Notes: generated by a model not told the origin, from the letters alone. DNA of 19,662 nucleotides from Deinococcales bacterium (GCA_043778225.1 JAYWGM010000065.1:1-19662); one strand, 5' to 3'. Positions 4,487 through 19,662 are shown, counted from the first letter of the stretch. Program-made: numbers and translations.

Positions 4487-5046
4487 AAGTCCACATTTGA
4501 CAGCAATTGACCACGCAACCAAACAACAGATTTCACCAAACCCTGTTCCTCGAGTTGCAACAATATGGCATTCATAGAAATAGGAGGGCGTTGTAAATTG
4601 GCTAACTGCATCTGAATGGTGTTCAAAACAAGATTGGGTGTGCGTTCAACAATACGCATCACAAATTCATCAGGACTAAGCGCAAGAATTCCAAAAGGCT
4701 CAAGTATGGCTTGGGGAAAATCCCGCAAATTATGCGTAACAATAAAACCAGCCCGAGCATAAACAGCAGCCTCGAGAACATGGCAATCATTAACGTCTGG
4801 AAGCATAATCTCGAGCCGAGGTACATTCTCAAGTAAAGCATCAGGCAATGCCTTATCCATCAGGTTTTGGGTACGTTCTAGATTTGCCGCTAAGATTTCA
4901 GGGCGTTTTTGTAACAAATTGCGTTTCCATTCAGATTGAATTTCGGATGTCCAATGTGCTTGGTAGGCTTTTTGTAATGCCAGCCAAATGAAAAAATCTC
5001 GCAACCGCGCCGAATACAAGATATTGGCATCAAGTATTGCAATCAC
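4483..5046 (-). CDS. PIN-domain protein (VapC50/PIN_3-like toxin)
   Basis: N-terminal ILDANILY, W...I..EW, LPDVNDCHVLEAA and IVTHNLRDFP motifs. Start overlaps the stop of the upstream HTH gene. Confidence 0.9.
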   Translation of the reverse strand: MIAILDANILYSARLRDFFIWLALQKAYQAHWTSEIQSEWKRNLLQKRPEILAANLERTQNLMDKALPDALLENVPRLEIMLPDVNDCHVLEAAVYARAGFIVTHNLRDFPQAILEPFGILALSPDEFVMRIVERTPNLVLNTIQMQLANLQRPPISMNAILLQLEEQGLVKSVVWLRGQLLSNVDF

Positions 5047-5462
5047 TGATTGTACAATCCAAGTTCTTGCGAAAGGTCTGATAGCTCCTGCATAGCGATA
5101 AGGCTACGCTGACGTTGTTCAGCTTGATATGTAAGAACATCCATTAGTTTTATCCGATGATGTGAACCAACCATGCGAAACGCAATCTCGCCACGTTCGA
5201 GTAACTTCGTCACAAACGGACGCGAGACATTCAGTACATCCGCCGCCTCAAAGGTGCTGAGTTCCGTATCGAGCGGCAGAACCACCACTGGGCGTGCATG
5301 ACCCATTTGCTCGAGGACTTCTTGAAAAACCGTCAGGGTTTCTTGAGGCAATAACGTAATTTCACCATTGCTCGAGTGAAAAGCGAGTTGCCCAGATAGG
5401 AGTTGCTGCCCGACTTCTCGAGCAGTTTGGGCGGCTTGGGCAGAAAGCACAATCGGTTGCAT
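5043..5462 (-). CDS. Excisionase-like HTH DNA-binding protein (putative antitoxin of the PIN gene)
   Basis: ELSTFEAADVLNVSRPFVTKLLERGEIAFRMVGSHHRI is the HTH_17 pattern usually paired with this PIN family. Start at ATG 5462. Confidence 0.88.
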   Translation of the reverse strand: MQPIVLSAQAAQTAREVGQQLLSGQLAFHSSNGEITLLPQETLTVFQEVLEQMGHARPVVVLPLDTELSTFEAADVLNVSRPFVTKLLERGEIAFRMVGSHHRIKLMDVLTYQAEQRQRSLIAMQELSDLSQELGLYNQ

Positions 5463-5495
5463 GACTCGAGTATAGCACAAGTGAAATAAGTGAAA
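5463..5495 (-). promoter_or_regulatory. Leaderless extended -10 promoter with tandem repeat (possible operator)
   Basis: TGcTATACT sits 6 nt before the ATG. AAGTGAAA occurs twice on the plus strand (5479-5486, 5488-5495) over the -35 region. Confidence 0.5.
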
Positions 5496-5608
5496 CGTTA
5501 TTCATGATAAAAATGATAGATTTTTCGCACGAAAACGACAATTCTACCAAACCCGCGAAAGAGTAAAAATGTGCGAAAAATAAAAATCAACCAGAAAATC
5601 AAAAGCAA

Positions 5609-6637
5609 TTAAGGATTCTCGAAAATTGAGAAATCGAATGTTGAAAATAATCTATTAAACGATGTTCCTTCATGACTTAAAAAAGGCACAAGATAATGGT
5701 ATATCCAATCGTTTTCATCACCCGTAATTGTAATTTCAATGATTCGAGCTTCTTCATTTATATCCCTTCTGATATAGCCATCATAATCCAGAATGCTAAT
5801 TTCCGTTTTTAGATCAGGGTACTTACAAACACGTTCAAACTTTTCCCAAACAGTTATTTTTTTAGAATTGCTGTTTTCACGATTGTCAATAATTTCTCCA
5901 AGCACTTGTCGAGTAATTCTTGGCAATACGCTTAATCCCTGAAAATAATTTCTTAAATCAGAAATAACCCTCTCAAAACCATCTATGTCCCAGTTGCTAT
6001 CAATACAAAACTTTTTGAGCTTACTGCATTCTCCCAATTGCTTTGATGGTCTTAATTCCATAAATTCCCCTAAATCTGTTGGGAATTCGCCATTTGAATT
6101 AGGCAATTCAAGTTCTATTCTCACTCGAGTAAGTTCACGCATGACAAACTGATAAATGCGCTCAAGCACATCTGGCTTAATTCCGATAAGTTTTTGGGAA
6201 AGCGTAATAATATCCCAAATATTTTCCTTTTCATTAAAATTAAGCACTTGACACAGCGTAGGATCTAACGTGTACGAGCCTTGTTTCTTACCGACAACTA
6301 ATACATATAAGGCTTCAATCTTGAATTGTTCAGAATTGGTCTTTCTTTCCTCAACTTTACGCAAAGTGTCATTTACTTTTTGCGTAGTACAAACAGTTGT
6401 GATTTGGATACCTATTTTGGAATTGGCATCGTACAAATCTATTCCTGCACTATTATTTCGCTCTCTGTTCGTATTTTCCAGATTTGAATTATCCAATTCG
6501 TTTAGGATAGTCATAAAAAAATCTTCAAGGACACGATGTAAATCAGTTAAGCCAATTTTTGCACGAAGTTCGGCACGTTCTGCAATGGTGGCAAAAGCAT
6601 CAATAATTTCACCGAGGTAACGTCCACTGAGTATCAT
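5609..6637 (-). CDS. SMEK-domain protein (putative defence nuclease effector)
   Basis: N-terminus ...LRAKIGLTDLHRVLEDFFMTILNEL...LENTN...NSAGIDLYD..SKIGIQITT follows the SMEK pattern (D.....E.F...LN....L.N.N.....gIDL.D......QiT). AT-rich. Confidence 0.8.
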   Translation of the reverse strand: MILSGRYLGEIIDAFATIAERAELRAKIGLTDLHRVLEDFFMTILNELDNSNLENTNRERNNSAGIDLYDANSKIGIQITTVCTTQKVNDTLRKVEERKTNSEQFKIEALYVLVVGKKQGSYTLDPTLCQVLNFNEKENIWDIITLSQKLIGIKPDVLERIYQFVMRELTRVRIELELPNSNGEFPTDLGEFMELRPSKQLGECSKLKKFCIDSNWDIDGFERVISDLRNYFQGLSVLPRITRQVLGEIIDNRENSNSKKITVWEKFERVCKYPDLKTEISILDYDGYIRRDINEEARIIEITITGDENDWIYHYLVPFLSHEGTSFNRLFSTFDFSIFENP

Positions 6638-6667: not shown

Positions 6668-6704
6668 TTTAGCTCACATATTTTTTATGAATACGTGAGC
6701 TAAA
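6668..6704. terminator. Stem-loop downstream of valS
   Basis: TTTAGCTCACATATT-ttttatg-AATACGTGAGCTAAA, 14 of 15 bp paired, 6 nt after the valS stop. Confidence 0.55.
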
Positions 6705-6710
6705 AGTTCT

Positions 6711-9350
6711 TTAGGCGAACTGCGCCAAGACTTTTTGTAATCTCTCAAGCTGCATTCCAAAATCCTCAATCCGCCTTTGCTCCTCGAGAAGCACATCTTC
6801 TGGTGCATTTTTCACAAAGTTCTCGTTGCTTAACTTGCTTACGGCTTGCTGCACTTGCTTCTCGAGTTCAATTACTTTTTTCTTGCCTCGAGTCACATAT
6901 TCCGATGTGTCTATCAGCCCCTCGAGCGCTAGAATCACCTCGAGTCCTGGTGCTACACCACTTATTACTTTTCCTGTAACAGTTGTCAATTGAGCGCGTG
7001 CAAGCCGCTTAAATAGTTCAGAATTTCGTTGGACTGAATTTGCATTTTCCCCAGTAATCTCAACGTACAATTCTTTGCCAAGAGGTAACATTAGTTCATT
7101 GCGTAAAATACGAACTTGAGTTACAGCGGCACGAATTGAATCAAAGTCTTCTTCAAGATTATCAAAACTTGCATTGGCTTCAGGAAACTTTTCAAATGCC
7201 AATTTATTTTCTAAACTACCATTCGGATTCCCAAGAATAATTGATTCATACAAGTACGAAGTAATGAATGGCATAAATGGGTGAAGTAGTTTTAAGATAG
7301 CCTCTAAGAGGTTCATTAAGACCTTTAGTGTTGATTTTGAGCCTGCATCAATACCACGTTTAGCTGACTCAATATACCAATCACAAAAATCGTCCCAAAC
7401 AAATGAGTAAATAGACCGAATTGCTGCTCCAAGATCGAATGCGTCTAATTGTTCTCGAGACCTACGAATAACTCCATTCAGGCGTTTGACTATCCATCTA
7501 TCTGCTATGTCTGTGATGTCATTTTCCCCCCAAAACTCTTGTAATTCTGACCTTTGGTACTGCATTAAACTCATTTGAACAAAGCGCGACGCATTCCAGA
7601 GTTTATTGGAAAAATTCCGACCCATTTCGTAACGGCGCTCATCGTGTTTAATATCCTGCCCGCCCGTGCTGAGATACGCCCATGCAAAACGACAACCATC
7701 CACGCCGTATTTATCCATTAGCTCGAGTGGGTCAATGCCATTGTTTTTGGATTTCGACATTTTCTGACCCTTGGCATCCAAGTACAAACCATGCAGCATG
7801 ACGGTATGAAATGGTGCTTGACCAGTGAATTCAAAACCAGACATTTGCATTCGCGCCACCCAGAAAAACAGGATGTCATAACCAGTCACAAGCACATCGT
7901 TAGGGTAGAATTTAGCTAAGTCCTCAGTTTGGTCTGGGTAGCCCATGGTCGAGAAATTCCAGAGTGCCGAAGAGAACCACGTATCAAAAACATCAGGGTC
8001 TCGAGTTAAAGTCAAATGCGCGTAACGGGGGTCTTGGTCACAATCCAAATCTGGATTATCTAAGTCTGGCACATAGATTTTACCATCGGCATCGTACCAA
8101 GCTGGAATTTGATGCCCCCACCAGAGTTGCCGCCCAATTGCCCATTCACGAATATTCTCGAGCCAATCTTTGTTAACCTTGGTGTAGCGCTCCGGCACAA
8201 TTTTGATTCGCCCATCCTCGAGTGCATCCAGCACTTGCCTGGCGGGTTTATCCATTTTGCACCACCACTGGGTCATGACCATCGGTTCAACAGGCTCTTT
8301 AGTGCGCTCCGAAATACCCATGCTGACCTTATAATCTTTAGCCTCGAGCAATTCGCCCGATGCCTCGAGCGCCTTGACCACGGCTTTACGGGCAGCAAAA
8401 CGCTCCATGCCACGAAATTCTTCTGGTACAAGGTCGGAGGTGAGTTTCGCAAATTTATCAATCACACTGGGGGTGGCTAAATTATGGCGTAAACCAATCT
8501 CAAAATCTGTTGGGTCATGGGCTGGGGTGATTTTCAGGCAACCCGTGCCAAAATCCATTTCAACACTCGAGTCGGCAATAATTGGAATCAGCCTATCAGT
8601 AAGTGGAATCCGCACTTTTTGACCCACAAGGCTCGAGAAACGCGCATCTTCTGGATGAACCGCCACGGCTTGGTCAGCAAAAATGGTTTCAGGACGGACA
8701 GTCGCCACGTTCATCACGCCACTACCATCCTCGAGTGCATAGCTTAGGGTGTACATCTTGCCCTGACGATCCTCACGGTCAACTTCGAGGTCAGACAACA
8801 CCGTTTGCGCCACAGGATCCCAATTAACAATTTTTTCACCACGGTACGCCATGCCTTTTGCCACGTACTCCACAAAGGTACGACGCACAGCCCGAGACAG
8901 CCCAGCATCCATTGTAAAGCGTTCTCGAGACCAATCGGCAGAAACACCAAGTCGCGTGAGTTGATGCAAAATCGTACCACCGTGCTTTTCCTTAAATGCC
9001 CAGACTCGCTCGAGGAATTTCTCACGCCCAAGATCAGACTTATGCAGACCCTCGAGAGCAAGTTCTTTTTCGACCAGCACTTGGGTACTAATCCCCGCGT
9101 GGTCAGTCCCCGGCAAGTACAGTGCCTCGAAACCCGCCATGCGCTTAAAGCGGGTCAGGACATCAATAATCGTGTTATCGAGCGCATGACCAAGATGTAA
9201 ACTGCCCGTTACATTGGGCGGCGGAATAACAATTGTAAAAGCAGGTTTACTCGAGGTTGCATCGGCACGAAACGTACCCGGTTTAGCCCAGAGTTCTGCC
9301 CAAGAAGATTCGACAGCCGATGGTTCGTATTTAGTAGGTAATTCATTCAT
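6711..9350 (-). CDS. valS: Valine--tRNA ligase
   Basis: PPPNVTGSLHLGH (HIGH), GTDHAGISTQ, ATVRPET, GTGCLKITPAHD, RQLWWGHQIP, DVFDTWFSS, KMSKS, and a C-terminal coiled coil. AAGGAG RBS before ATG 9350. Confidence 0.99.
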   Translation of the reverse strand: MNELPTKYEPSAVESSWAELWAKPGTFRADATSSKPAFTIVIPPPNVTGSLHLGHALDNTIIDVLTRFKRMAGFEALYLPGTDHAGISTQVLVEKELALEGLHKSDLGREKFLERVWAFKEKHGGTILHQLTRLGVSADWSRERFTMDAGLSRAVRRTFVEYVAKGMAYRGEKIVNWDPVAQTVLSDLEVDREDRQGKMYTLSYALEDGSGVMNVATVRPETIFADQAVAVHPEDARFSSLVGQKVRIPLTDRLIPIIADSSVEMDFGTGCLKITPAHDPTDFEIGLRHNLATPSVIDKFAKLTSDLVPEEFRGMERFAARKAVVKALEASGELLEAKDYKVSMGISERTKEPVEPMVMTQWWCKMDKPARQVLDALEDGRIKIVPERYTKVNKDWLENIREWAIGRQLWWGHQIPAWYDADGKIYVPDLDNPDLDCDQDPRYAHLTLTRDPDVFDTWFSSALWNFSTMGYPDQTEDLAKFYPNDVLVTGYDILFFWVARMQMSGFEFTGQAPFHTVMLHGLYLDAKGQKMSKSKNNGIDPLELMDKYGVDGCRFAWAYLSTGGQDIKHDERRYEMGRNFSNKLWNASRFVQMSLMQYQRSELQEFWGENDITDIADRWIVKRLNGVIRRSREQLDAFDLGAAIRSIYSFVWDDFCDWYIESAKRGIDAGSKSTLKVLMNLLEAILKLLHPFMPFITSYLYESIILGNPNGSLENKLAFEKFPEANASFDNLEEDFDSIRAAVTQVRILRNELMLPLGKELYVEITGENANSVQRNSELFKRLARAQLTTVTGKVISGVAPGLEVILALEGLIDTSEYVTRGKKKVIELEKQVQQAVSKLSNENFVKNAPEDVLLEEQRRIEDFGMQLERLQKVLAQFA

Positions 9351-9369
9351 GATTGCTCCTTGCAAGTTG

Positions 9370-10713
9370 CTAACTTTCCAAAAGTAAAATGGCTGTTTCT
9401 TCTATTCTTTTTAGAATTAAAGAATTATCAAATTCGGGTCGAAATTTTTTATTAAATTTCAATAGATTGTATAGAAAGGAATTAAAATTTACTTTTTCTA
9501 CAAGTGAATCCAGTGATGCAAATAAATCGTTTCGTTCAGGAATTGAAGTGGCAATTCTTGAAAATACCCAGAAATCTTGATTCATTAAAAATTCTGGATT
9601 CATTAATTCACTGAGGATTTTATATCGTGGGAAAGTTTCAATTTTTCCTAAACCAATGCTTAGAATTCTTTTTAGAACAGCATCTGATCTAAATTTCCTA
9701 CCCTCGTTAGACCTAGTAAAATAGGTCTCAACACCATTATTTATTTTAAGTTTGTTTTCGGGATCATGTAAATCCGCAAACGTTTCAAACGCCCAATACT
9801 GCATATACTCATCTCGAGTAAACTGCTCCACTTTTGATGAGTTGATATTCAATCCAATTTTGTGAAGTTCTCGAGACGCGAGAAAGAGTATTTTTTTTGC
9901 CGTCTCTGCATCTTGAGACATTATTATTTGGTCATCGGAGTATCTAATATACTTCGAGCAATTTTCATCACAGATTTTTTTCATGTATAAGTCAAAATCT
10001 TGAAGATAAAAGTTTGATAGTATTCGTGAACTATCGCCAACTTCATCTTGTGGCAGACCGACAGTTTTTCTATAGTAGCCTTCTATTGGTCTGTTCCAGT
10101 TATGTAAGAAGTGAAAAAGCAAATCAACGTAAAACATTTGCTCCTTTTCAACAGTGTGCCGTATTTTTGCTTCTAAAAGGTTCAAATTAATAGAGTCATA
10201 AAAATTTGCAATATCAAACTTTAAGAAATACTGCAAATCTCCATCTGATGCCCATTCAAAAGCTCTTTTTTGAAAGTCTTTCCAATGTTCCGACCACTCA
10301 TACGGCGTATAAGTTCCGAATGGTATCCCTGAAACAGTTGATGTTAGTCTGCTAATTTCTTCTACTTCGCGTGACTTAATAGGATTATTTAAGGTCCAAC
10401 CGCCATAAGTTCCTTCTACTCTGTTTTTGGCGATGTTTTCCTGAATTCTTTCTACGCAAAAATAGTATAGGCAATTCTCTCGAAAGTGGAAACACGGAAC
10501 TATTCTTGAAACAAGATTATGTTTATTAAAAACAACGTAATTTCTAGGGGAATTAGGGGTAAATTTTTTATGTTTAACTTCAAAGTAAAGTTCTTTTAAG
10601 AATGCGGGTTTTATTGGAAGCTCATGCTTTTCGTATTCAATTAAAGTCTCCTTAGTGCTTTTCTTCCAAAAACTACTTGAAAAAATTCTAACAAACGCCT
10701 CTTCTTGTATCAT
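9370..10713 (-). CDS. Stand-alone reverse transcriptase, Abi/UG (defence-associated RT)-like
   Basis: RT motifs KFDIANFYDSI, GLPQDEVGDSSRILSNFYL, YIRYSDD and GLNINSSK, with a helical C-terminal extension. No intron maturase/HNH domain. AGGAG RBS. AT-rich. Confidence 0.88.
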   Translation of the reverse strand: MIQEEAFVRIFSSSFWKKSTKETLIEYEKHELPIKPAFLKELYFEVKHKKFTPNSPRNYVVFNKHNLVSRIVPCFHFRENCLYYFCVERIQENIAKNRVEGTYGGWTLNNPIKSREVEEISRLTSTVSGIPFGTYTPYEWSEHWKDFQKRAFEWASDGDLQYFLKFDIANFYDSINLNLLEAKIRHTVEKEQMFYVDLLFHFLHNWNRPIEGYYRKTVGLPQDEVGDSSRILSNFYLQDFDLYMKKICDENCSKYIRYSDDQIIMSQDAETAKKILFLASRELHKIGLNINSSKVEQFTRDEYMQYWAFETFADLHDPENKLKINNGVETYFTRSNEGRKFRSDAVLKRILSIGLGKIETFPRYKILSELMNPEFLMNQDFWVFSRIATSIPERNDLFASLDSLVEKVNFNSFLYNLLKFNKKFRPEFDNSLILKRIEETAILLLES

Positions 10714-10754
10714 TTCAATCTCCTGACTGCAAACTCAACCATTCAACATTTTTT

Positions 10755-10833
10755 CTCGAGGCTTGGGGCTTTGGCTGGTTGGGCAAGGCGTGCCTTGCCA
10801 CTACGGGTTTCTAGGCTCGAGCTTTGGCGCTTT
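10755..10833 (-). repeat. Cassette-boundary repeat R1 (hicB 3' end copy + GTAG-REP-like hairpin + CTCGAG)
   Basis: Minus strand: AAAGCGCCAAAGCTCGAGCCTAG-AAACCC-GTAGTGGCAAGGCACGCCTTGCCC-AACCAGCCAAAGCCCCAAGCCTCGAG. Matches 12975-13053 with 6 mismatches. Confidence 0.95.
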
Positions 10834-10834
10834 T

Positions 10835-11440
10835 TCATAACAGTTTCTCGAGTTCATTCACAAAACGCTGAAAATACGATAAATCCAAGAGCAGTTTGGG
10901 ATTGGTTGTCTCGAGCAATTCAAATGAAATACTGCCTTTTTTGTACTGTTTTTTTTCACAATCTTTGGTTGCTTTTTCTAGGGCTGCAAAAAGCGTTTTA
11001 CGGTTTCTTGTTTCGGGGTCGGTAGGTGCAGGTAAGGCATTTTCGTTAAAAGATTGTCCAAAAAAGCGGCGTAAGTTTTCTCTATCAGCAATTAACCATG
11101 TTTCCATGCAGGTTGCCATAAAATGCACTTGGGCATCTGTTGTGTTACTTGGTTGATTCCAATTGTCTCGAGTTTTTAAGTGCTTCCAAGGTGGTTCTTG
11201 AATAGGGTCTTCGCTATCTACGAGCAGGATGTAAATTGTGTTTTCTTCGGCTTTACGAAGCGCAATTTGAAAATCATCAAAGGCTTGTTGTCTGCCACCA
11301 CATCCAATAAATTTGGGTAATCTGCCTGCAAAACCAGCTTTTGAGAACAATTTGCTAAAGGCTGCCCGCAATGGCTCTTGGTTGGCTCGAGTATCACCGC
11401 CACCTTCAACATAAACCCGAATAGAAACTTTGGTTTTCAC
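10835..11440 (-). CDS. DUF4276 family (TOPRIM-like) protein
   Basis: YVEGGGD, GCGGR, LLVDSE and METWLIADR motifs. GTG start overlaps the ATPase stop. Confidence 0.82.
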   Translation of the reverse strand: MKTKVSIRVYVEGGGDTRANQEPLRAAFSKLFSKAGFAGRLPKFIGCGGRQQAFDDFQIALRKAEENTIYILLVDSEDPIQEPPWKHLKTRDNWNQPSNTTDAQVHFMATCMETWLIADRENLRRFFGQSFNENALPAPTDPETRNRKTLFAALEKATKDCEKKQYKKGSISFELLETTNPKLLLDLSYFQRFVNELEKLL

Positions 11441-12594
11441 CAGCGCACCCCACCAATTTCACCACGTAACCATAAATCGCCTAGTCCGTACTGCTCGAGC
11501 CATTCATCAAGTCGGTTAGTTTCCAAGCGTTTCAGTGTGGTGACACCATTTTCCTTTTCACAAACCACAATGCTTTCGGGGTCGCTCGAGAACGCATTGA
11601 CAAGAAGTTCTGAATGGGTTGTGACAATCAGTTGGGTGCGTGTGGCAGCATCTTTTAAGAGTTTGGCAATGTTTCTAATTAAATCTGGGTGCATTCCAAG
11701 TTCTGGTTCTTCGAGACAAATAAGTGGCGGCGGGTCTGGGTCGAGTAAAAGCGTGACAAGCACCAAATACCGTAGAGTGCCATCGGATAAACGAATGGCT
11801 GGAATGCTTTTATCACCTTCGGATATAAACAATGCCGCGTTTGCATTGCCAATATCAATGTTAATGTCAGTAATACCATCGTAAACTTCTTTGAAGGCTT
11901 CAATAATTTTTTGTTTGGTTGAAGGTGTTCTAAATAAACGGCTTAAAAAAAGACAGAAATTTGAAAAATCCTCTTCTAGTACACTATTTCGCATATCCGC
12001 TCTTTGGGGTTGACGCAAAATTGAATAATGCCCAAATGACCAATTTCGGTAAAGTTTAATCTTTTCAAATGAAGTAGTAATTTTCGATAAGTACCAAGTA
12101 GTGTTTGGGTATTTAATCTGACCTAAAACAGAAGAATTAAAATCCAAAGAATTAATTGATATTTTATTAAAATTGTGATCCAATAAAATTGGATGTTTAT
12201 AATTAAAATCATAAATCAGTGTATCTATTGCGTTGCTCGAAATCTCTTCAGCTAAGATTCGCAAATCCCGATTCTCTTGTGTGAATCTAAAAAGATACTT
12301 CATCTCTTCAAAAAAACGCACTTTAAGTTCAACTATATTTGGATCACCAGATTTATTTGAATCACCAGATTTATGAGTCCATTCTTGAATTCCTCCTCCT
12401 CGAGAAATAACATCATCTAAACTTCCACTTGCACGTTGAGGAATTGTTAATGCTCTTAAAAAAGCAAAAACCTCCAAAAAATTAGATTTTCCTGACCCAT
12501 TTGCCCCAATAAGGATATTCAAGCGGTTCAGCTTGAATGCTGGTGTTTGGCTCGAGAATGAAAGCAAATTTTTTATTTCAATACTAGAAATCAT
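11437..12594 (-). CDS. AAA_21/ABC-like ATPase (COG4637-like), partner of DUF4276
   Basis: Walker A GANGSGKSN, signature LSDGTLR, Walker B LEEPELGMHP, H-loop TTHS and terminal LGDLWLRGEIGG. Confidence 0.9.
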   Translation of the reverse strand: MISSIEIKNLLSFSSQTPAFKLNRLNILIGANGSGKSNFLEVFAFLRALTIPQRASGSLDDVISRGGGIQEWTHKSGDSNKSGDPNIVELKVRFFEEMKYLFRFTQENRDLRILAEEISSNAIDTLIYDFNYKHPILLDHNFNKISINSLDFNSSVLGQIKYPNTTWYLSKITTSFEKIKLYRNWSFGHYSILRQPQRADMRNSVLEEDFSNFCLFLSRLFRTPSTKQKIIEAFKEVYDGITDINIDIGNANAALFISEGDKSIPAIRLSDGTLRYLVLVTLLLDPDPPPLICLEEPELGMHPDLIRNIAKLLKDAATRTQLIVTTHSELLVNAFSSDPESIVVCEKENGVTTLKRLETNRLDEWLEQYGLGDLWLRGEIGGVRW

Positions 12595-12635
12595 GGACTC
12601 ACCTCAACTTTAATGTTTACCATAAAGGTCTTAAC

Positions 12636-12676
12636 CTATCCTGCTCGAGCTTGGGGCTTTGGCTGGTTGGGCAGGC
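12636..12676 (-). repeat. Cassette-boundary repeat R2 (truncated) plus 14-bp copy of the NUDIX 3' end
   Basis: Minus strand GCCTGCCCAACCAGCCAAAGCCCCAAG-CTCGAGCAGGATAG. The final 14 nt are identical to 18578-18591. Confidence 0.9.
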
Positions 12677-12678
12677 AG

Positions 12679-12758
12679 TTAAATCAATTCCACATCGTAA
12701 AGCCCAAATTTTTCTCGAGACTCCAAATCAAAATGTGTGCATCAAGAAGTAATTTCAT
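12679..12758 (-). pseudogene. Internally deleted vapC remnant
   Basis: MKLLLDAHILIWSLE (PIN N-terminus, ending at CTCGAG), then AAAAA, then an out-of-frame FGLYDVELI*. The 31 nt at 12678-12708 are identical to 17278-17308 at the end of the intact vapC. Confidence 0.9.
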
Positions 12759-12961
12759 TCCATGTACTCTTTCATGTCCTCGAGAGGCGCATTAAAATCA
12801 TCACTCATTTTCCAACCCTTTAGACTGCCGACCAAACCGCGTTTCTTGGGCTTAATTTCAAATTCTCGGTTTTCTAAGGTAATCACGACACTTTCACCGG
12901 CGGCGGCTTGTTGCAATAAAGCGACTAGGTTTTGTTGGGCTTCAATAATGCTTACGGTCAT
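12755..12961 (-). CDS. Phd/YefM-like antitoxin (DUF2281-like C-terminus), copy 2
   Basis: MTVSIIEAQQNL..L...A..GE.VVIT followed by GSLKGWKMSDDFNAPLE. AAGGAG RBS. Paralog of 17662-17877. Confidence 0.85.
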   Translation of the reverse strand: MTVSIIEAQQNLVALLQQAAAGESVVITLENREFEIKPKKRGLVGSLKGWKMSDDFNAPLEDMKEYME

Positions 12962-12974
12962 GGTTTTCTCCTTT

Positions 12975-13030
12975 CTCGAGGCTTGGGGCTTTGGCTGGTT
13001 GGGCAAGGCAAGCCCCGCCCCTACGGGTTT
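12975..13030 (-). repeat. Cassette-boundary repeat R3
   Basis: Minus strand AAACCC-GTAGGGGCGGGGCTTGCCTTGCCC-AACCAGCCAAAGCCCCAAGCCTCGAG, immediately followed by AAAGGAG RBS. Confidence 0.95.
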
Positions 13031-13399
13031 CTAGGCTCGAGCTTTAGCGCTTTGTTCGGCAAGTAGTGTTGCTACCATTTGATTCAAACTCACATTGTTC
13101 TGCTCGGCTTGTTCGGCTAAACGCTGATGCAAATTGCTGGGAAGGCGCACCACAAAACGCCCACTGTACTTTTTTTGCATCGCAGGTAATGGAATTGAGT
13201 TTCCAAGCTCGAGATTGACTTTGAGCCAAGCAAATTTTGCATCCTCGAGCATGGCTAGGGCTTCCTCGAGCGTATCGCCTTGCGAGACACAACCAGCTAA
13301 ATCTTTTATTTCCACCGAGTACCCAATGGCTTCGGGAATCAGGGTAATTGGGTATTTGAGGCTTAGGTAATACTCGAGTTTTGGTGTTTTATTTTTCAT
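13031..13399 (-). CDS. hicB: HicB family antitoxin (orphan; no hicA seen)
   Basis: LEYYLSLKYPI, DLAGCVSQGDTLEEAL and a C-terminal RHH YSGRFVVRLPSNLHQRLAEQAEQNNVSLNQ. Start at ATG 13399. Confidence 0.9.
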   Translation of the reverse strand: MKNKTPKLEYYLSLKYPITLIPEAIGYSVEIKDLAGCVSQGDTLEEALAMLEDAKFAWLKVNLELGNSIPLPAMQKKYSGRFVVRLPSNLHQRLAEQAEQNNVSLNQMVATLLAEQSAKARA

Positions 13400-14474
13400 T
13401 GGTTTTCCTTCTTTCATTAGCTCGAGTTTGCTTAGCTGGTTTAACTTGCTTTGGTTCATCGCTCACCTTGGCTAATTCTGCCTCGAGTTGTGCAATGGTT
13501 GGTAAATCCAACTCGAGGTCTTTAGGTAAAGCTGTCACAAAATCTGCCACGCCAATAGGAGCGCTAACTCCACGCAGAACATACTCGGCTATATTCCCAT
13601 TTTTGCCTTTGCAAAGAATTAAGCCTATGGTTGGTGCATCTTGCGGATGCCTGAGTAAGTCGTCTACTGCGCCAACGTAAGCGAGGACTTGTCCAACATC
13701 GGCAGGTTCAAAATCTCTGGCTTTTAATTCAATCACCACAAAAGCCCTTAATTTTAGGTGGTAAAAAAGTAAATCAATGTAAAAATCTTGCCCTCCAATC
13801 TCGAGGTGATACTGACTGCCAACAAGTGCAAATCCCACTCCTAGCTCAAGCATAAATTTTTTCAGGTACTCGAGTAAACCAGCTTCTAAGGCGCGTTCAT
13901 GGGCATCTTTGCCAAGGGTAAGAAAATCAAAATTGTAGGGGTCTTTGAGAATTTGTTGCGCGAGGTCAGATTGCAACGGTGGTAGGGTTGCGGCAAAATT
14001 TGTAATGGCTTTGCCGCTTCGTTCAAAGAGTTTAGATTGAATTTGTAACTCGAGGATACTTCTGCTCCAACCGTTCTCGAGGGTTTGTTTGGCATACCAA
14101 AGGCGTTGATTATGGTCTTTAATTTTCTCGAGCAGCACAGCATTGTGCGCCCAAGGTAATTGTGCCACAAGCTGTGGCACAATTCCAGAATCGTTCTGGT
14201 AAGCTAAGTAAAATGCTCTCATTCGGTAAAGAGAACGTCTTGAGAATCCTTCAACTCCTGGTAATGCAGCTTTCAAATCCTTTGCAATTTGCTCGAGTAC
14301 CTTATCACCCCAAGTGTATTCTTTTTGTGCTTTGACAATATCTTGTCCGATTTGCCAGTAAAGCATGACAAGCTCTTGGCTGACAGCCAGTGCTGCTTTG
14401 ACTTGGGTTTGTTGAATACGTTTTTTAAGGTCAAGTAAGAAAATCTCGTATTCAGTTTTTGGTTTTTCTAACAT
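13389..14474 (-). CDS. DUF1016/YhcG family PD-(D/E)xK nuclease-domain protein
   Basis: LYWQIG, WG.KV, GFSRRSLYRMRAFY, LPWAHN, KDPYNFDFL, FYIDLLFYHLKLR, VIELK and TIGLILC. Confidence 0.93.
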   Translation of the reverse strand: MLEKPKTEYEIFLLDLKKRIQQTQVKAALAVSQELVMLYWQIGQDIVKAQKEYTWGDKVLEQIAKDLKAALPGVEGFSRRSLYRMRAFYLAYQNDSGIVPQLVAQLPWAHNAVLLEKIKDHNQRLWYAKQTLENGWSRSILELQIQSKLFERSGKAITNFAATLPPLQSDLAQQILKDPYNFDFLTLGKDAHERALEAGLLEYLKKFMLELGVGFALVGSQYHLEIGGQDFYIDLLFYHLKLRAFVVIELKARDFEPADVGQVLAYVGAVDDLLRHPQDAPTIGLILCKGKNGNIAEYVLRGVSAPIGVADFVTALPKDLELDLPTIAQLEAELAKVSDEPKQVKPAKQTRANERRKTNEK

Positions 14475-14483
14475 AGATTACCT

Positions 14484-14510
14484 CTCGAGGCTTGGGGCTT
14501 TGGCTGGGCA
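14484..14510 (-). repeat. Cassette-boundary repeat R4 (short)
   Basis: Minus strand TGCCCAGCCAAAGCCCCAAGCCTCGAG, followed by AGGTAATCT-ATG of DUF1016. Confidence 0.9.
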
Positions 14511-14516
14511 ATCGTT

Positions 14517-15257
14517 TCATACTTTCTTGGCTCGAGACTTTTGATGTTGTCGTTTATGGGCGGCTTTGATTTTCTCGAGTAATTCCCGTGGCTTGCTTTC
14601 AAATGCAGCAAAAGTGCTTATATTGTCATGTTTCAAATGGATTTGTCCTTCGCCTGTGTTGCCTCGGTGCTGACCAGTGGAATAATACTTGTTGGTGGCT
14701 ATTTCACTCGAGCATAAAACCCAGTAACGAATAATGTCGCGCCAAACGGCTATCCAAATAAAAATATCACTGCAATCAGGTTTGACTTGTTGAAAATTCA
14801 TGTCAAATCGTTTGCTTGAACTCGAGGCTAGGGCTTTGACATAAAGGGCTTCTTGGCTATCAAAATCTACGGCTCGAGAGGCTTTAACTTCGATTTTGAT
14901 ATTACCCAGTAAAAAATCGTATTGCCCTGAGTAACTTGAGTCTAGTTTCTTAGTGGGTTTGACCAGTTCAGGAACGATTTCTTTCAAATGTCCTTGCGCC
15001 CAATTTTCTCCGAATCCTCTGGGCGAAGTCATTTCAAAAAGATGCAGGTACATATTTCGAGCTAAGTATTCGTCGCGCAGGTCGTAATAATCGTTTAGGG
15101 AAATTTTGTTGTTTCCCATCAGGCTGGAAATTAGAAATTCAAATTCGTTAAAGGGATACACCGAAAATAAATCATCGAGCCTTTGCATAATCTCTTCGCG
15201 TTTGGTTTGCTCTAATTGCTCGAGAAGTGTTTGTAAATGCTGTTTTAAGATTTCCAT
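14517..15257 (-). CDS. Putative type II restriction endonuclease
   Basis: PD-(D/E)xK-like YDFLLGNIKIEVKASR and NFQQVKP. Overlaps the end of the methyltransferase. GGAGAGG RBS before ATG 15257. Confidence 0.7.
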   Translation of the reverse strand: MEILKQHLQTLLEQLEQTKREEIMQRLDDLFSVYPFNEFEFLISSLMGNNKISLNDYYDLRDEYLARNMYLHLFEMTSPRGFGENWAQGHLKEIVPELVKPTKKLDSSYSGQYDFLLGNIKIEVKASRAVDFDSQEALYVKALASSSSKRFDMNFQQVKPDCSDIFIWIAVWRDIIRYWVLCSSEIATNKYYSTGQHRGNTGEGQIHLKHDNISTFAAFESKPRELLEKIKAAHKRQHQKSRAKKV

Positions 15258-17197
15258 GATGCCTCTCCGATGGTTTGTTGAATTAAACCAATTTCTTCTT
15301 CGGTTAAACAAAAAACTTGATATACCAAAGCATTGATTTCTGAGCTATCCGTTTTCTGCTCGAGTATCTGGTTCACTTTACTCTCGATTTCATCATGTAT
15401 TTCTGGCTCGAGAACCGGAAATGGTAATTTTTCAAGGTCGCCTCGCAGCACCTTATGGGTGGCAAATTTCCTGGTAAATAAAAACTGAAATAAGCTCGAG
15501 TTTAGGAATGCCATCACGACTTTAATACTCATATTTGGAATTTTTGGAATCAGGATATTGGCACTGTTGAGTGTTAGGGCTTGTGATTGATCAAATGCAA
15601 AAACCAGTTTTTTGGATATGAATTTGTACACCAGTTTTTCTTCGGCTCGAAAGAAGCGTTCTGGTGCGACTTGCTGAAATTCGTTTGGAGTAAATTCTAT
15701 AAATGTTTTGGCTTCTATTAGGTAAAATGGTTGTATGTCGCTGCCCCTAAAAATAGGCTCGAGATTTGGTGATTGCTCCAAGCGTAAGAACTTGGTGTTA
15801 TTGCCTGTGACAATGCCAAGCGCCCATTCGGAATGCCCGTGCAAGGTGAAATGCGGTGTGGTATAAATTTTTGCAATTAATGCTTGCTGGTCAGTATCTA
15901 CTTGTGTATCAAAAATAAAGTCTGAGTTTTTCAAAAATCTATTCTGATTGACTCGAGTCGTAATGTTCTTATCGTCTATTAGGTCAAGCCAATGGTCTTC
16001 TGGAATTGCTTTTTGAATATCCAAACGAATAACAGGTGTGAAAACCTCACTAAATTGCCGTCCCAATTCAATAATCCTGATTATTGAATTGTTCTTGAGA
16101 ATGTATGCTCGAATGTCCGCATGGGTTTTTATTTTCAAAATGGATTCAGGCAAAATAAAAGATAGTTCGCCGTTTTGTTTGAGTAATTGCAAGGATTTTA
16201 GTATAAACATGGAGAATGTCTCACCAGATTGAAGTATGCCCTCGAACTGCTTTGGGATACTCGAGTTTTTATATGCGCCCCAAGGCGGATTGGTGGCAAT
16301 CACATCAAAAAAACCTATCAGATGATTTGTTTCGCAAAAAAATTCTTCATTTGCAAGTTCAGAAAGTGCATCTAAACAAAAAATTCTAGGTGTAAATTCT
16401 GAAGTCTTAAATTGCAATAATAAGTTAATTCGAGCAATTTGTACGGCAATGCTGTCAATATCAAACCCATAAATTGATTCTGGTTGCAAAGAAAACACTT
16501 GCGCTGCGCCAATCAAGTATTTTCCAGTTCCACAACAAGGGTCTAAAAAATTACTGACATTTTCGAGCATCACATCTTTTAAGGCTTCTTGTACCAAATG
16601 TGTTGGGGTGTAATACGAACCCAAATTCGATTTGTTACCTTCGCTGCGTAAAGACTGATAAAGAATTCCAAGGAAATCATCAGTATTCTGCTCGAGAAGT
16701 GAAGCATAGACACTTGAATATAAGTCTCTGTGCTGAATCGTGCCAAAACTGGCTTGCCAATTGTTCATTTCTTTTTGAACCGAAACTCGAGTAAAAATGG
16801 CTTTGGTTAAGTCAAAAATATCGATTTGTGTACTTCTTTTTATCTCAAAATTCTGCTCGAGTTGACAAATAGTTGCTAAGAATAAAAGTGGTTCAAGCTC
16901 GAGTGCATTTTCCTTAAATTTTTGCACAATCAATTGCAGATTCCCGAGGTCATCAGCATTTGTCGCCGACTCAAGCGGAATAAAATTCTGTTTGGACTGC
17001 GCTTTATTTGCCCGAATATGCAGCTTCTGAATAGAACCATCGGAAATTTGGTTTTTAAGACTAATTAAACTGTCCTCCGAGAAAGCCAAGGGATGGGCAT
17101 TCACAGGACTGACGTACCCAGCCTTGACCCAATTGCGAATGGTCGCAGAGGAAACGCCTATGATTTGTGCAGCCTTATCTATGGAAACTTGATTCAT
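15245..17197 (-). CDS. N6-adenine DNA methyltransferase (gamma/TaqI-like) with N-terminal HTH
   Basis: GSYYTP, motif I FLDPCCGTG and motif IV NPPW. C-terminal TaqI_C-like TRD (GIVTGNN, FRGSDI, KLVYKFI, LNSS..LEKLPFP). N-terminal AAQIIGVSSATIRNWVKAG HTH. Confidence 0.9.
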   Translation of the reverse strand: MNQVSIDKAAQIIGVSSATIRNWVKAGYVSPVNAHPLAFSEDSLISLKNQISDGSIQKLHIRANKAQSKQNFIPLESATNADDLGNLQLIVQKFKENALELEPLLFLATICQLEQNFEIKRSTQIDIFDLTKAIFTRVSVQKEMNNWQASFGTIQHRDLYSSVYASLLEQNTDDFLGILYQSLRSEGNKSNLGSYYTPTHLVQEALKDVMLENVSNFLDPCCGTGKYLIGAAQVFSLQPESIYGFDIDSIAVQIARINLLLQFKTSEFTPRIFCLDALSELANEEFFCETNHLIGFFDVIATNPPWGAYKNSSIPKQFEGILQSGETFSMFILKSLQLLKQNGELSFILPESILKIKTHADIRAYILKNNSIIRIIELGRQFSEVFTPVIRLDIQKAIPEDHWLDLIDDKNITTRVNQNRFLKNSDFIFDTQVDTDQQALIAKIYTTPHFTLHGHSEWALGIVTGNNTKFLRLEQSPNLEPIFRGSDIQPFYLIEAKTFIEFTPNEFQQVAPERFFRAEEKLVYKFISKKLVFAFDQSQALTLNSANILIPKIPNMSIKVVMAFLNSSLFQFLFTRKFATHKVLRGDLEKLPFPVLEPEIHDEIESKVNQILEQKTDSSEINALVYQVFCLTEEEIGLIQQTIGEASWKS

Positions 17198-17220
17198 AAC
17201 TCCTTCTTCTTTGCGCGAGG

Positions 17221-17265
17221 CTCGAGATTAGGGCTTTGGTTGGGCAAGGCGTGCCTAGCCCCTAC
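17221..17265 (-). repeat. Cassette-boundary repeat R5
   Basis: Minus strand GTAGGGGCTAGGCACGCCTTGCCC-AACCAAAGCCCTAATCTCGAG, between vapC and the MTase. Confidence 0.9.
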
Positions 17266-17278
17266 GGTTCAGGACGGG

Positions 17279-17665
17279 TTAAATCAATTCCACATCGTAA
17301 AGCCCAAAGAATTCATCATCTGAAACCAAGGTGGCATTCTCGCTTATGGCTTGGGCTATCAGCATTCGGTCAAACGGGTCTTTGTGATGCAACGGCAAAG
17401 GCTTTAAGACATCCAAATGCTTGGTTTGAATCTCGAGAATCTGAAAATCGAGGTTTACTAGGTGCTGCTCGAGTTTTGTTAAACTCATTTCAAGTGGCAG
17501 ATTTAACTTACCCATCCCAGCTTTGATGCTCATTTCCCAAAGACTGGCAATGCTTACTAAAACCTCGTTAGAGCCGTCCTCAATGATTTCCGAGTGCCTT
17601 AACTTGCGTTTTGGATTCTCCTCGAGATGCCAAATGAGAACGTGGGTATCAAGTAAAATCCTCAT
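17279..17665 (-). CDS. vapC: VapC/PIN toxin
   Basis: LLDTHVLIW, SIASLWEMSIK.GK and LPLHHKDPFDRMLIAQA..E...LVSDD. ATGA-coupled to the antitoxin. Confidence 0.93.
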   Translation of the reverse strand: MRILLDTHVLIWHLEENPKRKLRHSEIIEDGSNEVLVSIASLWEMSIKAGMGKLNLPLEMSLTKLEQHLVNLDFQILEIQTKHLDVLKPLPLHHKDPFDRMLIAQAISENATLVSDDEFFGLYDVELI

Positions 17666-17877
17666 TCCATGTACTCCTTAAATTCTTCGAGTGGGGCGTT
17701 AAAATCCTCGCTCATTTTCCAGCCTTTTAAGCTGCCAAGCGCACCTCGAGTTTTCTTCTTGGTGGCAGTAATTTCAAAAGCCTGATTTTCTATGGTGACA
17801 ACAATTTTTTCGCCTTCAACAGCTTTCATAATCAGGGCTTCTAGGTTTTGTTGGGCTTCTAGTATGCTTACGGTCAT
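17662..17877 (-). CDS. Phd/YefM-like antitoxin (DUF2281-like C-terminus), copy 1
   Basis: MTVSILEAQQNL...GEKIVVT...GSLKGWKMSEDFNAPLE, directly upstream of vapC. Confidence 0.87.
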   Translation of the reverse strand: MTVSILEAQQNLEALIMKAVEGEKIVVTIENQAFEITATKKKTRGALGSLKGWKMSEDFNAPLEEFKEYME

Positions 17878-17890
17878 GGTTTTCTCCTTT

Positions 17891-17913
17891 CTCGAGGCTT
17901 GGGGCTTTGGGCA
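17891..17913 (-). repeat. Cassette-boundary repeat R6 (short)
   Basis: Minus strand TGCCCAAAGCCCCAAGCCTCGAG, followed by the same AAAGGAGAAAACCATGACCGTAAGCAT as after R3. Confidence 0.9.
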
Positions 17914-17935
17914 TTGGTTTAATTATGAAACAAAT

Positions 17936-18574
17936 TTATGAACTACTTTGCCAATTTTTTTCGAGAATTTGTGTACCACCAATTGAAGCTATTTCAGTAG
18001 GGGTTGCTTCTCGAGAATGCAGCCATGCGTTTATACTTACTTCAATTGCAAAGTCATCATTGAAAGAGCATAAAACACTGCCCGCCGAGCTATGCCAAGC
18101 CACTGAACCTCCAAAAGTTGCACATGGAAATGAAGTTTCCCAAGGCGGATATGATGGATATTCAAGGTTCAAATCTAAGATACTTCGCACAATATTTTTA
18201 CGGATTTCTCGAGGGATTTCAGATGGCGAATTATGTATCTGTCGAATCGGACAATCTAGTACAACTTGGATAATTGCATTTTTAACAACATCAAAATCTT
18301 CATCGTGAAAATGTGTCAAAGGTGGGAAATTATTTTCCTCGCGCATAAAACGGACAACAGAATAGAAAACCCAACCTGAATCTAAAGAATACTCGCGTTG
18401 CTGATTGCGATGATCTTCTATTTTCCTTGAGTACCAATTCAAAAGCGCAATCAATTCCCAAGTGCCATCAAAAATACTAATGGAACTATATTCAGAAAGG
18501 TTCTTTAGCTTTTCTGGAGAAGTCAGAATATCTTCGTAATGTGGGTAATCTTTTGAGTCAATGATAAGTTTCAT
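17936..18574 (-). CDS. Hypothetical protein (212 aa)
   Basis: AT-rich ORF whose ATG overlaps the NUDIX stop (ATGA). No motif recognised. Confidence 0.7.
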   Translation of the reverse strand: MKLIIDSKDYPHYEDILTSPEKLKNLSEYSSISIFDGTWELIALLNWYSRKIEDHRNQQREYSLDSGWVFYSVVRFMREENNFPPLTHFHDEDFDVVKNAIIQVVLDCPIRQIHNSPSEIPREIRKNIVRSILDLNLEYPSYPPWETSFPCATFGGSVAWHSSAGSVLCSFNDDFAIEVSINAWLHSREATPTEIASIGGTQILEKNWQSSS

Positions 18575-19488
18575 AAACTATCCTGCTCGAGTTTAGTTTT
18601 GAGTTCATCAATAAATTCAGCCATTTCCCAGTCAATTTGTGCTTCTGTTATTGGTACAAACGAATGCTTAAAAACCTTGCCTTTGTCATCTTCGCCGTCT
18701 GATACAACCCATTCCCAAGAATCCCTAGGCTCGAGGGTCTTAAACCAATAGTAATACCTGTCCTCCAGAAATTCGAGCGGCGAACCATTTTCTGGGTGTG
18801 CGCCTTTGAAGTAATAGTCTTGCCGCCCGAGAAAAACAGGATTCTCGAGACTTAGCCCGCTTTCCTCGAGAATTTCGCGCTTGGCGGCTTCTAAAGGCGT
18901 TTCGCTATCTTCAATGCCGCCTGCTGGTACGCCCATGCCGCCGTCTGGGTGTCCCGAGAAGGTCAGGACTTCGTGTCCTCGGGTGATGTAACAAATCACG
19001 CATGGGCGAATATTGGCGCGTGAAATCTGTAACTCGAGTCCGAGGTGTTTTCCCAATTCGGGTAGCATCGCATCCATATCGTAATGCAGTATCACATTCT
19101 CGAGTTTTTCAAAGCGGTGATAAAAAACGTATTTTTCTTCGGCGAAATGCTCCCACGTATCCCGTTTTTCAGTTGTCTCGAGCCACACAAAATGCCAGAC
19201 TGATGTACTCATCCCATTTTTGTATAAGCCAGAACCAAGATGCTGTTTCATTTCGAGGTTCTCGAGTCCTGTTTCCTCATGGGCTTCTCGAGTTGCGGCT
19301 TCAAAAACTGTTTCGCCAGTCTCGAGTCCACCGGCTGGGACTTGAATTCCTGCGGTTGGATACTTAGCTTCGTGTTCAAAGACTAAAATCTCGAGTCCTC
19401 GGGTGATGTAGACACAAACCCGTTGGCGTATGCCGTTGGCTCGGGCGTGTGCTTGGGCTGTCTCGAGATTGGCATACTTGGTAAACAT
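18571..19488 (-). CDS. Tandem double-NUDIX hydrolase
   Basis: Two Nudix boxes, GGLETGETVFEAATREAHEETGL and GGIEDSETPLEAAKREILEESGL, each preceded by a C.YITRG.E(I/V)L repeat. GAGG RBS. GTG at 19494 is an alternative start. Confidence 0.92.
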   Translation of the reverse strand: MFTKYANLETAQAHARANGIRQRVCVYITRGLEILVFEHEAKYPTAGIQVPAGGLETGETVFEAATREAHEETGLENLEMKQHLGSGLYKNGMSTSVWHFVWLETTEKRDTWEHFAEEKYVFYHRFEKLENVILHYDMDAMLPELGKHLGLELQISRANIRPCVICYITRGHEVLTFSGHPDGGMGVPAGGIEDSETPLEAAKREILEESGLSLENPVFLGRQDYYFKGAHPENGSPLEFLEDRYYYWFKTLEPRDSWEWVVSDGEDDKGKVFKHSFVPITEAQIDWEMAEFIDELKTKLEQDSL

Positions 19489-19491
19489 AAA

Positions 19492-19662
19492 CACCTCGTC
19501 CGTAAAATATGCGGACGAGATGGGTGCGTTGTCGCGCCGTCCCGCGTTACCACCGCTTTTCTCGAGCCGAGTTCTTAAAAAACTGGTCGAGCGCTCTTGC
19601 TACGCTGTGATGGGCGCTCCCAGAGGATTCTACTGGTGTGGGCGTGTGACCGCCCACCTGTT
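19492..19662 (-). promoter_or_regulatory. T-box riboswitch leader, probably Val-specific (5' part runs off the window)
   Basis: T-box sequence GCGG-UGGUAAC-GCGGGA (19556-19540) pairs with UCUCGU-CCGC (19520-19511) to form the antiterminator with a 7-nt bulge. The alternative hairpin CAUCUCGUCCG...CGGACGAGGUG (19522-19492) covers the NUDIX SD and is followed by UUUAUGUUU. UGGU is complementary to ACCA (A73, as in tRNA-Val). Candidate GUA specifier at 19633-19631. Confidence 0.85.

Follow-up and report, generated by a model that had tools for sequence, protein, structure and literature searches.

The locus described here raises the question of how a row of anti-phage genes came to lie between a T-box leader and the essential gene valS, and whether that leader governs them. 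The window (the whole stretch analysed, 19,662 nucleotides) is the complete contig C65 of a 4.03-Mb metagenome-assembled genome (MAG) of a Deinococcales bacterium (G000; 107 contigs, completeness 89%), whose closest relatives in a related-locus search are uncultured Deinococcales/Deinococcota MAGs. The genes of interest are all on the minus strand. A Val-specific T-box with the specifier GUC heads this minus-strand unit; behind a gene for a NUDIX hydrolase come 11 co-oriented genes, in about 6 cassettes, and then valS, so that about 9 kb of anti-phage and toxin-antitoxin (TA) genes separate the leader from the synthetase gene (Table 1). We conclude with high confidence, as far as the structure of the locus is concerned, that it is a hot spot between conserved flanks and that the interior of a T-box(Val)-nudix-valS operon is a docking site for defence and TA cassettes. 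That the whole forms one transcript, with the cargo under control of tRNA-Val, is probable but less secure.

The preliminary description of the window had placed a T-box antiterminator and terminator at 19492-19556, and folding gives the same coordinates. The T-box is real, but the window end cuts the leader, so that only its 3′ half (19492-19662) lies inside; the 5′ half and the promoter are on another contig of the genome, C84. The terminator hairpin has 11 bp (-17.5 kcal/mol, z -5.4), and the antiterminator, with its UGGUAAC bulge, adopts the classical fold (-18.4 kcal/mol). The two structures have the segment CUCGUCCGC in common and are therefore mutually exclusive. The T-box sequence, AGCGGUGGUAACGCGGGA, is nearly invariant across the leaders aligned (13 leaders in 14 rows, G000 being entered as two pieces). 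On C84, Stem I (L002 1384-1586; 34.9 bits, E 1.1e-5 with RF00230) has the specifier loop GAGAAA-GUC-A, that is, a valine codon, as had been expected; GUC recurs in all 13 aligned leaders, and a tRNA-Val(GAC) gene is present in the genome. Directly upstream of Stem I we read a promoter, TTGACA-16 nt-TATACT (L002 1355-1382), the TATACT of which is nearly invariant among relatives. At the gathering threshold, Rfam reports no T-box in the window, nor at 20 valS loci of relatives. Because Val leaders of this clade score below that threshold (93 bits), we searched by E-value, and the search with RF00230 on the extended upstream sequence that had been proposed found both leader parts, each below the gathering score; the part inside the window matches at 19508-19662 on the minus strand (22.6 bits, E 0.0037), where it covers model positions 114-219 and lacks the 5′ portion. 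By score the leader falls outside RF00230, yet every structural hallmark of a T-box is present.

The join of C84 to the window is supported by an exact overlap, by synteny and by contigs that run past the break. The overlap consists of 97 bases at the end of C84, identical to the reverse complement of window 19566-19662, and no third contig shares the C84 end or the window end. The terminal genes of C84 (AP_endo2, HlyIII and GGDEF) are those found ahead of an unbroken T-box-NUDIX stretch in G003, G004 and G006, and partly in G007, and both pieces of the leader can be aligned with the leaders of 12 relatives, which are contiguous. Two Logan contigs, X1 record 7 and X2 record 14, extend 3331 and 1184 nt beyond the window end; these runs may be the source sample, and thus an independent assembly but not independent data.

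To which gene the leader belongs becomes apparent from the relatives. Having located valS and RF00230 matches throughout the family (19 genomes) and in representative genomes from four sister families, we read the intervals between them. On single contigs, the gap between T-box and valS is 42 nt (G021), 65 nt (G025), 220 nt (G002), 635 nt (G020), 739 nt (G024), 863 nt (G010), 956 nt (G019), 1789 nt (G008), 2145 nt (G006), 2678 nt (G011), 3084 nt (G013), 3485 nt (G014), 3993 nt (G015), 4084 nt (G018) and 5226 nt (G003); in G000, via the C84 join, it is about 10,100 nt. Whether the T-box abuts valS in relatives had been posed as a check, and it does so, at 42-220 nt, in G002, G021 and G025, while in G020, G024 and G010 (the last on a fragmentary contig) NUDIX alone lies between. 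These observations support the conclusion that the leader belongs to valS. In the window itself, 10,142 nt separate the terminator from the valS ATG on the same strand; the stop codon of the reverse transcriptase (RT) gene is at 9370-9372, and the 19-nt gap from there to the ATG at 9350, CAACTTGCAAGGAGCAATC, contains the Shine-Dalgarno sequence (AAGGAG). Both distances agree with those first estimated, ~10.1 kb and 19 nt.

The NUDIX gene had been counted as part of the cargo. It is, however, the first open reading frame (ORF) behind 15 of the 19 Val leaders examined, in two families (G000, G003, G004, G006, G007, G008, G010, G011, G013, G014, G015, G017 and G018, with G020 and G024 from the other family; the leader of G025 is outside this count), and is therefore an old member of the operon, T-box-NUDIX-valS being the older arrangement, and does not belong to the cargo. 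Four leaders differ: in G001 a 271-aa gene stands ahead of NUDIX; G002 retains no more of NUDIX than collinear remnants of its 5′ end; G019 has a SAM methyltransferase in place of NUDIX; and in G021, as in G025, the leader abuts valS. The Val leader of G005 is followed by an ORF of the same 271-aa length as in G001, and the contig stops soon after. Against PDB sequences the NUDIX protein gives generic MutT/Nudix matches only (best E 6.6e-8). The leader-proximal NUDIX varies in its number of domains: one in G008, G010, G020 and G024 (125-218 aa), two in genus g1 (about 300-330 aa, with longer ORFs of 351 aa in G003 and 364 aa in G001) and three in genera g3 and g5 (420-479 aa), a tandem domain expansion.

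Between NUDIX and valS, the co-oriented cassettes vary by species within the family, comprising VapBC-like TA, type II restriction-modification (R-M), YhcG/PDC-S02, HicB, HEC-01 and UG13b RT units. Behind NUDIX, G003 has a 148-aa gene, the R-M pair as in G000 and a 257-aa gene; G004 has YhcG, TA and two small genes; G006 has one 354-aa gene; G007 has YhcG, HicB, HEC-01, TA and a 215-aa gene; G008 and G012 have TA and a distant homologue of the 212-aa protein of the window; G014, G015 and G017 have HicB modules; and G018 has DUF1016_N and TA. The content of the interval thus varies while its flanks remain syntenic, as in a defence hot spot, which bears out the proposal of the preliminary description that the array grew inside the valS unit. 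Most of the cargo of the window was confirmed as defence or TA genes with PADLOC and Pfam; the PADLOC scores are 348.8 bits for MTase_II, 230.8 for REase_II, 459 for PDC-S02, 430.5 for HEC-01A, 234.5 for HEC-01B and 464.6 for RT_UG13b. The two R-M proteins are 68% and 87% identical to those of the G003 pair. The first TA cassette has a VapBC-like layout, with an antitoxin of 71 aa, a predicted PIN toxin of 128 aa (E 1.3e-17) and a 4-nt gene overlap. The cargo is AT-rich, with 33-45% GC.

A second T-box operon of the same genome repeats the pattern. Behind the Ile T-box (60.8 bits, with the specifier AUC) come Septu and then ileS (contig C63, L039 4453-7160, minus strand), the Septu genes being overlapping ORFs at L039 5480-6835 and 4698-5498 that encode PtuA (393.5 bits, 451 aa) and PtuB (310.1 bits, 266 aa). 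G003, G005 and G007 have behind the ileS leader an ORF pair that is the same by length, together with other ORFs, and the ATPase of G003 was confirmed by Pfam. The leader adjoins ileS in G002, G011 and G019. The genome has a third T-box, which abuts the gene of a class II synthetase.

How the array may have grown is indicated by its junctions. Six of the seven cassette junctions in the window share an element of 35-82 nt with the coding-strand core GCCTTGCCCAACCAGCCAAAGCCCCAAGCCTCGAGA, which is often preceded by a 7-8 bp hairpin and ends 10-50 nt ahead of the next start codon. A nhmmer profile of the six copies run against the genome gave six strong matches, all in the array, and 3 weak ones elsewhere (E 0.002-0.003), and the same profile found copies in the valS-leader arrays of G001, G003, G004, G006 and G007. 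In G006 the repeat occurs once, after NUDIX, versus six times in G000. When 21 genomes were searched for the pattern CCAAAGCCCCAAGCCTCGAG with up to 2 mismatches, only scattered 2-mismatch matches appeared besides this array and G004:C100. Four of the 8 predicted pairs of the junction hairpin show compensatory change across 8 copies, which is suggestive, although the sample is small. Contigs from a relative that is 90-95% identical, in another freshwater metagenome (X3), join the array at or near junction repeats while skipping cassettes, for example passing from HicB directly to HEC-01A, a hint of other cassette orders; the joints are 12607>13035 (side of 125) and, with sides of 25 letters only and thus too weak to count, 12667>17259 and 9350>12643.

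These repeats probably arose as cassettes entered the spacer behind NUDIX one by one, by insertion with long target duplication, each time adding one more copy of that spacer. This process has been described for R-M units, including a case in Thermus, in the available text of Furuta, Abe and Kobayashi (2010, PMC2853133). Traces of it are also found outside the valS-leader array. At the 3′ end of valS, 160 nt are duplicated around an islet of SMEK, HTH_17 and PIN_3 genes: 4327-4486, lying 2.4 kb downstream of valS, is 84% identical to 6712-6871, and 91% identical at the protein level over residues 827-879. The same islet and valS remnant are present in G003, and the islet is an insertion into the valS tail with a long target duplication. 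Direct repeats of 299 nt, 92% identical, surround the Septu of G007; G003 has a duplicate of 39 nt from the 5′ end of ileS, and 49-65 nt of a YhcG-like 3′ end are duplicated around TA modules in G014, G015 and G018. The marks of the process, direct repeats longer than 30 bp and no mobility gene, are found here, judged for the valS-leader array without a strictly empty allele from the same species. Pfam identified no integrase or recombinase among 14 array, valS and SMEK ORFs, 6 more ORFs of the window and 4 ORFs in the last 5.4 kb of C84. An analogy to the integron promoter Pc, drawn earlier, holds for the layout (co-oriented cassettes, junction repeats and one promoter); no integrase was seen among these ORFs, and the repeats look more like iterated long target duplications than attC sites. 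We rejected the integron reading since no integrase was found in the window or in that part of C84.

If the unit is expressed from its leader, all of it (~13 kb) would form a single transcript, with its end at the hairpin behind valS, and cargo expression would follow T-box read-through, with a basal level at all times and more in the presence of uncharged tRNA-Val. Only co-oriented inserts without strong terminators would survive, because the single-copy valS would depend on transcription from the leader promoter. We regard this scheme as rather likely, a degree of confidence that extends to the steps of transcription and regulation only. Same-strand ORFs cover 72-98% of 14 arrays (9 valS and 5 ileS; about 52 kb) as cut at the aminoacyl-tRNA synthetase (aaRS) start, and coverage is taken to be at least 92% in all 14 once ORFs overlapping that start are counted, a value that is an estimate. 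No credible opposite-strand gene was seen in the 14 arrays, the largest uncovered opposite-strand ORF having 81 aa. Among 11 genomes that allow a reading, G000 included, there are 10 in which the valS start overlaps an unrelated gene upstream or lies at most 20 nt from it, and the sequence upstream of the valS Shine-Dalgarno differs in each of these genomes. Because valS abuts a different gene in each relative, a dedicated valS promoter would have had to originate inside many unrelated genes. Hairpins of at least 9 bp with a T-run occur within 60 nt past valS in 5 of 9 arrays, versus just one inside the 14 arrays; weak short-stem matches are equally frequent in arrays and in aaRS coding sequence, so that only stems of at least 9 bp are informative. 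The hairpin scan found no strong internal terminator in the array of the window and a strong hairpin after valS.

The same genes could, alternatively, form an ordinary defence island between two co-directional units, in which the T-box controls only NUDIX, and perhaps the 212-aa gene, while internal promoters drive the cassettes and valS, which would no longer be regulated by tRNA. As a rule, TA and R-M modules are transcribed from autoregulated promoters of their own. Coding-strand promoter-like sites do occur inside the cargo genes, and for two of them the distance to the valS ATG is no more than 420 nt; hexamers of this kind stand near valS in the AT-rich RT gene at 9772-9743 (10 of 12 matches) and 9431-9404, and valS could have its own start there. 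In G009, moreover, NUDIX and valS occur in the order GH20-NUDIX-3 ORFs-valS (L072, G009:C119:3400-9613), with the GH20 glycosidase gene 16 nt upstream of NUDIX; a T-box motif is absent within 6.2 kb upstream, and RF00230 has no match on the contig. The block appears to be fused to another upstream unit, and valS can thus be expressed without this leader. A gap of 10 kb between sensor and valS would blunt regulation, and since the genomes compared share ancestry, counts across them are not independent. Neither leader half reaches the gathering score of RF00230, the 34.9 and 22.6 bits being split over two contigs, and the contiguous Val leaders of relatives (26-87 bits, E down to 3.7e-19) also stay below it. 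All these points weigh against a single transcript under leader control. Promoter-like sites in the window are, however, rarer than in shuffles (15 found versus 24.2 expected), and of the 10 on the coding strand none lies in a junction repeat and one overlaps the RT start codon. Together with the changing neighbour of valS, the common orientation of all genes in the 14 arrays and the placing of strong hairpins after valS instead of within the array, this makes separate internal promoters, in our judgement, a possible but not a probable explanation.

A different objection concerns the level at which the switch acts. In genus g1 (window 19478-19522), the Shine-Dalgarno of NUDIX (GAGG) is in the 3′ arm of the terminator, and the start codon is in the U-tract (GGUGUUUAUGUUU), which is interrupted in this genus (UUUAUGUUU), another point that counts against the scheme; because of this arrangement, the switch may act partly on NUDIX translation. 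One and the same hairpin may here both terminate transcription and mask translation. Were the T-box of this genus mainly translational, as are those known for actinobacterial ileS from the available text of PMC12647780, the hairpin would hide the NUDIX Shine-Dalgarno and start codon, and uncharged tRNA-Val would alter NUDIX synthesis, reaching downstream genes weakly through coupling or polarity. In sister genera, however, clean T-runs come after the homologous hairpins, and the ribosome-binding site is a separate one (G008, G010, G011, G014, G015, G017 and G018), and G002 keeps the hairpin about 220 nt before valS with only NUDIX remnants after it, where hiding a Shine-Dalgarno would be senseless; we therefore consider a mainly translational switch improbable. 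Even less probability, to our mind next to none, attaches to the idea that the link between T-box and contig is an artefact of assembly or binning, the leader on C84 coming from another strain or locus. The window does stop within the leader, and a break of a metagenome assembly at that place points to a branch in the assembly graph. Set against this are the exact 97-nt overlap with ends common to no other contig, the 3′ half of the leader inside the window itself, the relatives in which the same leader is contiguous with NUDIX behind a flank like that of C84 and, with the caveat on their origin, the Logan contigs.

The array may be compared with four kinds of known system. Like T-box leaders of valS and ileS (RF00230; Bacillota, and ileS and glyS of Deinococcus), the leader has a Stem I specifier loop (GUC and a purine), a T-box sequence with UGGU bulge and a terminator that competes with the antiterminator; its operon includes the cognate aaRS, and the genome a matching tRNA gene. 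Unlike in those leaders, its aaRS is 10.1 kb off behind 12 other genes, its first gene is NUDIX, and its covariance-model scores are below gathering. For D. radiodurans, only ile and gly T-boxes are listed by Wels et al. (2008, PMC2494555), in the main text of which 'Nudix' and 'MutT' do not occur. With integron arrays expressed from Pc the locus shares co-oriented cassettes, junctions that lack a sigma-70-like site and bear a hairpin-containing repeat, a single upstream promoter and a cassette content that varies between relatives. Unlike an integron, it shows no IntI integrase, either in the window or over the final 5.4 kb of C84, its junction element (35-82 nt, 7-8 bp hairpin) precedes the ribosome-binding site of the next gene, and the array ends in an essential housekeeping gene and is headed by a riboswitch-type leader. 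As in the insertions described in the text available from PMC2853133, defence units without a mobility gene are flanked by direct repeats of more than 30 bp that correspond to a single-copy target sequence, and the inserts are low in GC; here, in contrast, insertion apparently took place again and again at one site, inside an operon, and built up an array of no fewer than 6 units, and the inserts include TA, RT and ATPase systems besides R-M. With core defence hot spots, such as those of Pseudomonas aeruginosa (PMC10250203, in its available text), the locus has in common conserved flanks, species-variable defence content and several adjacent systems; unlike them it lies within an operon, flanked by a leader-proximal gene and an essential aaRS, with all inserts co-oriented, and the pattern is repeated at a second T-box operon of the genome. 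The array is integron-like in layout only, with growth that fits long-target-duplication insertion, and combines a T-box operon with a defence hot spot. A full-text literature search, with subscription journals outside its coverage, found no publication that links T-box leaders with defence or TA cargo.

Tentatively, the T-box leaders of aaRS operons in this Deinococcales family might double as immunity sensors, in a riboswitch-governed, integrase-free cassette platform for defence genes, although we think this less likely than not to be their role. If so, phage takeover or toxin action that lowers charging of tRNA-Val or tRNA-Ile would increase read-through and, along with the synthetase, raise expression of the cassettes for restriction, Septu, RT, nuclease and TA, and linkage to an essential gene would also shield the cassettes from deletion. 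Descriptions of defence islands usually place them between genes, or on mobile elements that bring regulation of their own. In the present case, two essential operons that sense tRNA contain immune and TA cassettes, which change from species to species and keep one orientation, so that an essential operon appears to offer immune genes a place for docking and expression; the recurrence of this layout across the family and at a second T-box operon adds to the interest. Co-transcription would offer a simple route for the expression and retention of promoterless defence genes and a direct link between the charging state of tRNA and defence expression. It would also provide a natural example of how far a T-box can lie from its target gene, and a case of integrase-free array growth through repeated target duplication.

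Table 1. Features of the unit and its surroundings, in window coordinates.
Feature	Coordinates	Strand	Evidence
Val T-box leader, 3′ half: Stem III, T-box sequence with antiterminator (19509-19556), terminator hairpin (19492-19522)	19492-19662	-	Rfam E-value search, folding, leader alignment
Double-domain NUDIX hydrolase, conserved first operon gene	18571-19494	-	Pfam, relatives
212-aa protein, start overlaps NUDIX stop by 4 nt	17936-18574	-	no Pfam/PADLOC family
Junction repeat copy 1, core CCAAAGCCCCAAGCCTCGAG	17878-17935	-	
Type II TA cassette: DUF2281/Phd-like antitoxin (17662-17877), PIN toxin (17279-17665), 4-nt overlap	17279-17877	-	Pfam
Junction repeat copy 2, with hairpin	17198-17278	-	
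Type II R-M cassette: MTase (15245-17197; N6_Mtase, Eco57I, TaqI_C domains), REase ORF (14517-15311)	14517-17197	-	Pfam, PADLOC
Junction repeat copy 3	14475-14516	-	
YhcG/DUF1016 PD-(D/E)xK nuclease (PDC-S02, 13389-14474), then HicB antitoxin-like gene (13031-13459)	13031-14474	-	Pfam, PADLOC
Junction repeat copy 4, 82-nt form with hairpin	12962-13053	-	
Second DUF2281 antitoxin gene with remnants of internally deleted PIN gene	12678-12961	-	repeat search, Pfam
Junction repeat copy 5	12595-12700	-	
HEC-01 candidate defence pair: AAA_21 ATPase (11437-12594), DUF4276 protein (10835-11440)	10835-12594	-	Pfam, PADLOC
Junction repeat copy 6, 82-nt form with hairpin	10714-10834	-	
Defence-type reverse transcriptase, UG13b class, 33% GC	9370-10713	-	Pfam, PADLOC
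valS, ATG 19 nt after RT stop	6711-9350	-	only full-length valS match in genome
15-bp terminator-like hairpin with T-run just past valS stop, likely unit end	6668-6704	-	hairpin scan
Second islet at valS 3′ end: SMEK-domain protein (5609-6637), HTH_17 (5043-5480), PIN_3 (4483-5046), 160-nt valS 3′-end duplicate (4327-4486)	4327-6637	-	Pfam, repeats

Two further observations concern individual cargo genes. The 212-aa protein gave scores of at most 0.85 in an Atlas search, from a poor model (pTM 0.21); it belongs to a fast-evolving family of 212-243 aa (26-29% identity) without a known domain, which adjoins NUDIX here (window 17936-18574) and valS in G008 and G018 (L035 2840-3571 and L063 2888-3532). 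The DUF2281-PIN cassette is present twice, at 17278-17914 and 12678-13006, the second copy having lost about 300 nt of PIN, which leaves an orphan antitoxin gene.

The genome also has an unusual usage of palindromes. CTCGAG occurs in 24,877 copies per 4.03 Mb, 27 times the expectation, and GGCGCC (3 copies), GGGCCC (1), AGGCCT (1) and GACGTC (1) are nearly absent. Per kb, CTCGAG is found 13.0 times in NUDIX, 7.2 in valS, 1.5 in the RT gene and 1.0 in SMEK, with a genome-wide value of about 6.2; the low density in the RT and SMEK genes suggests that these are recent imports.

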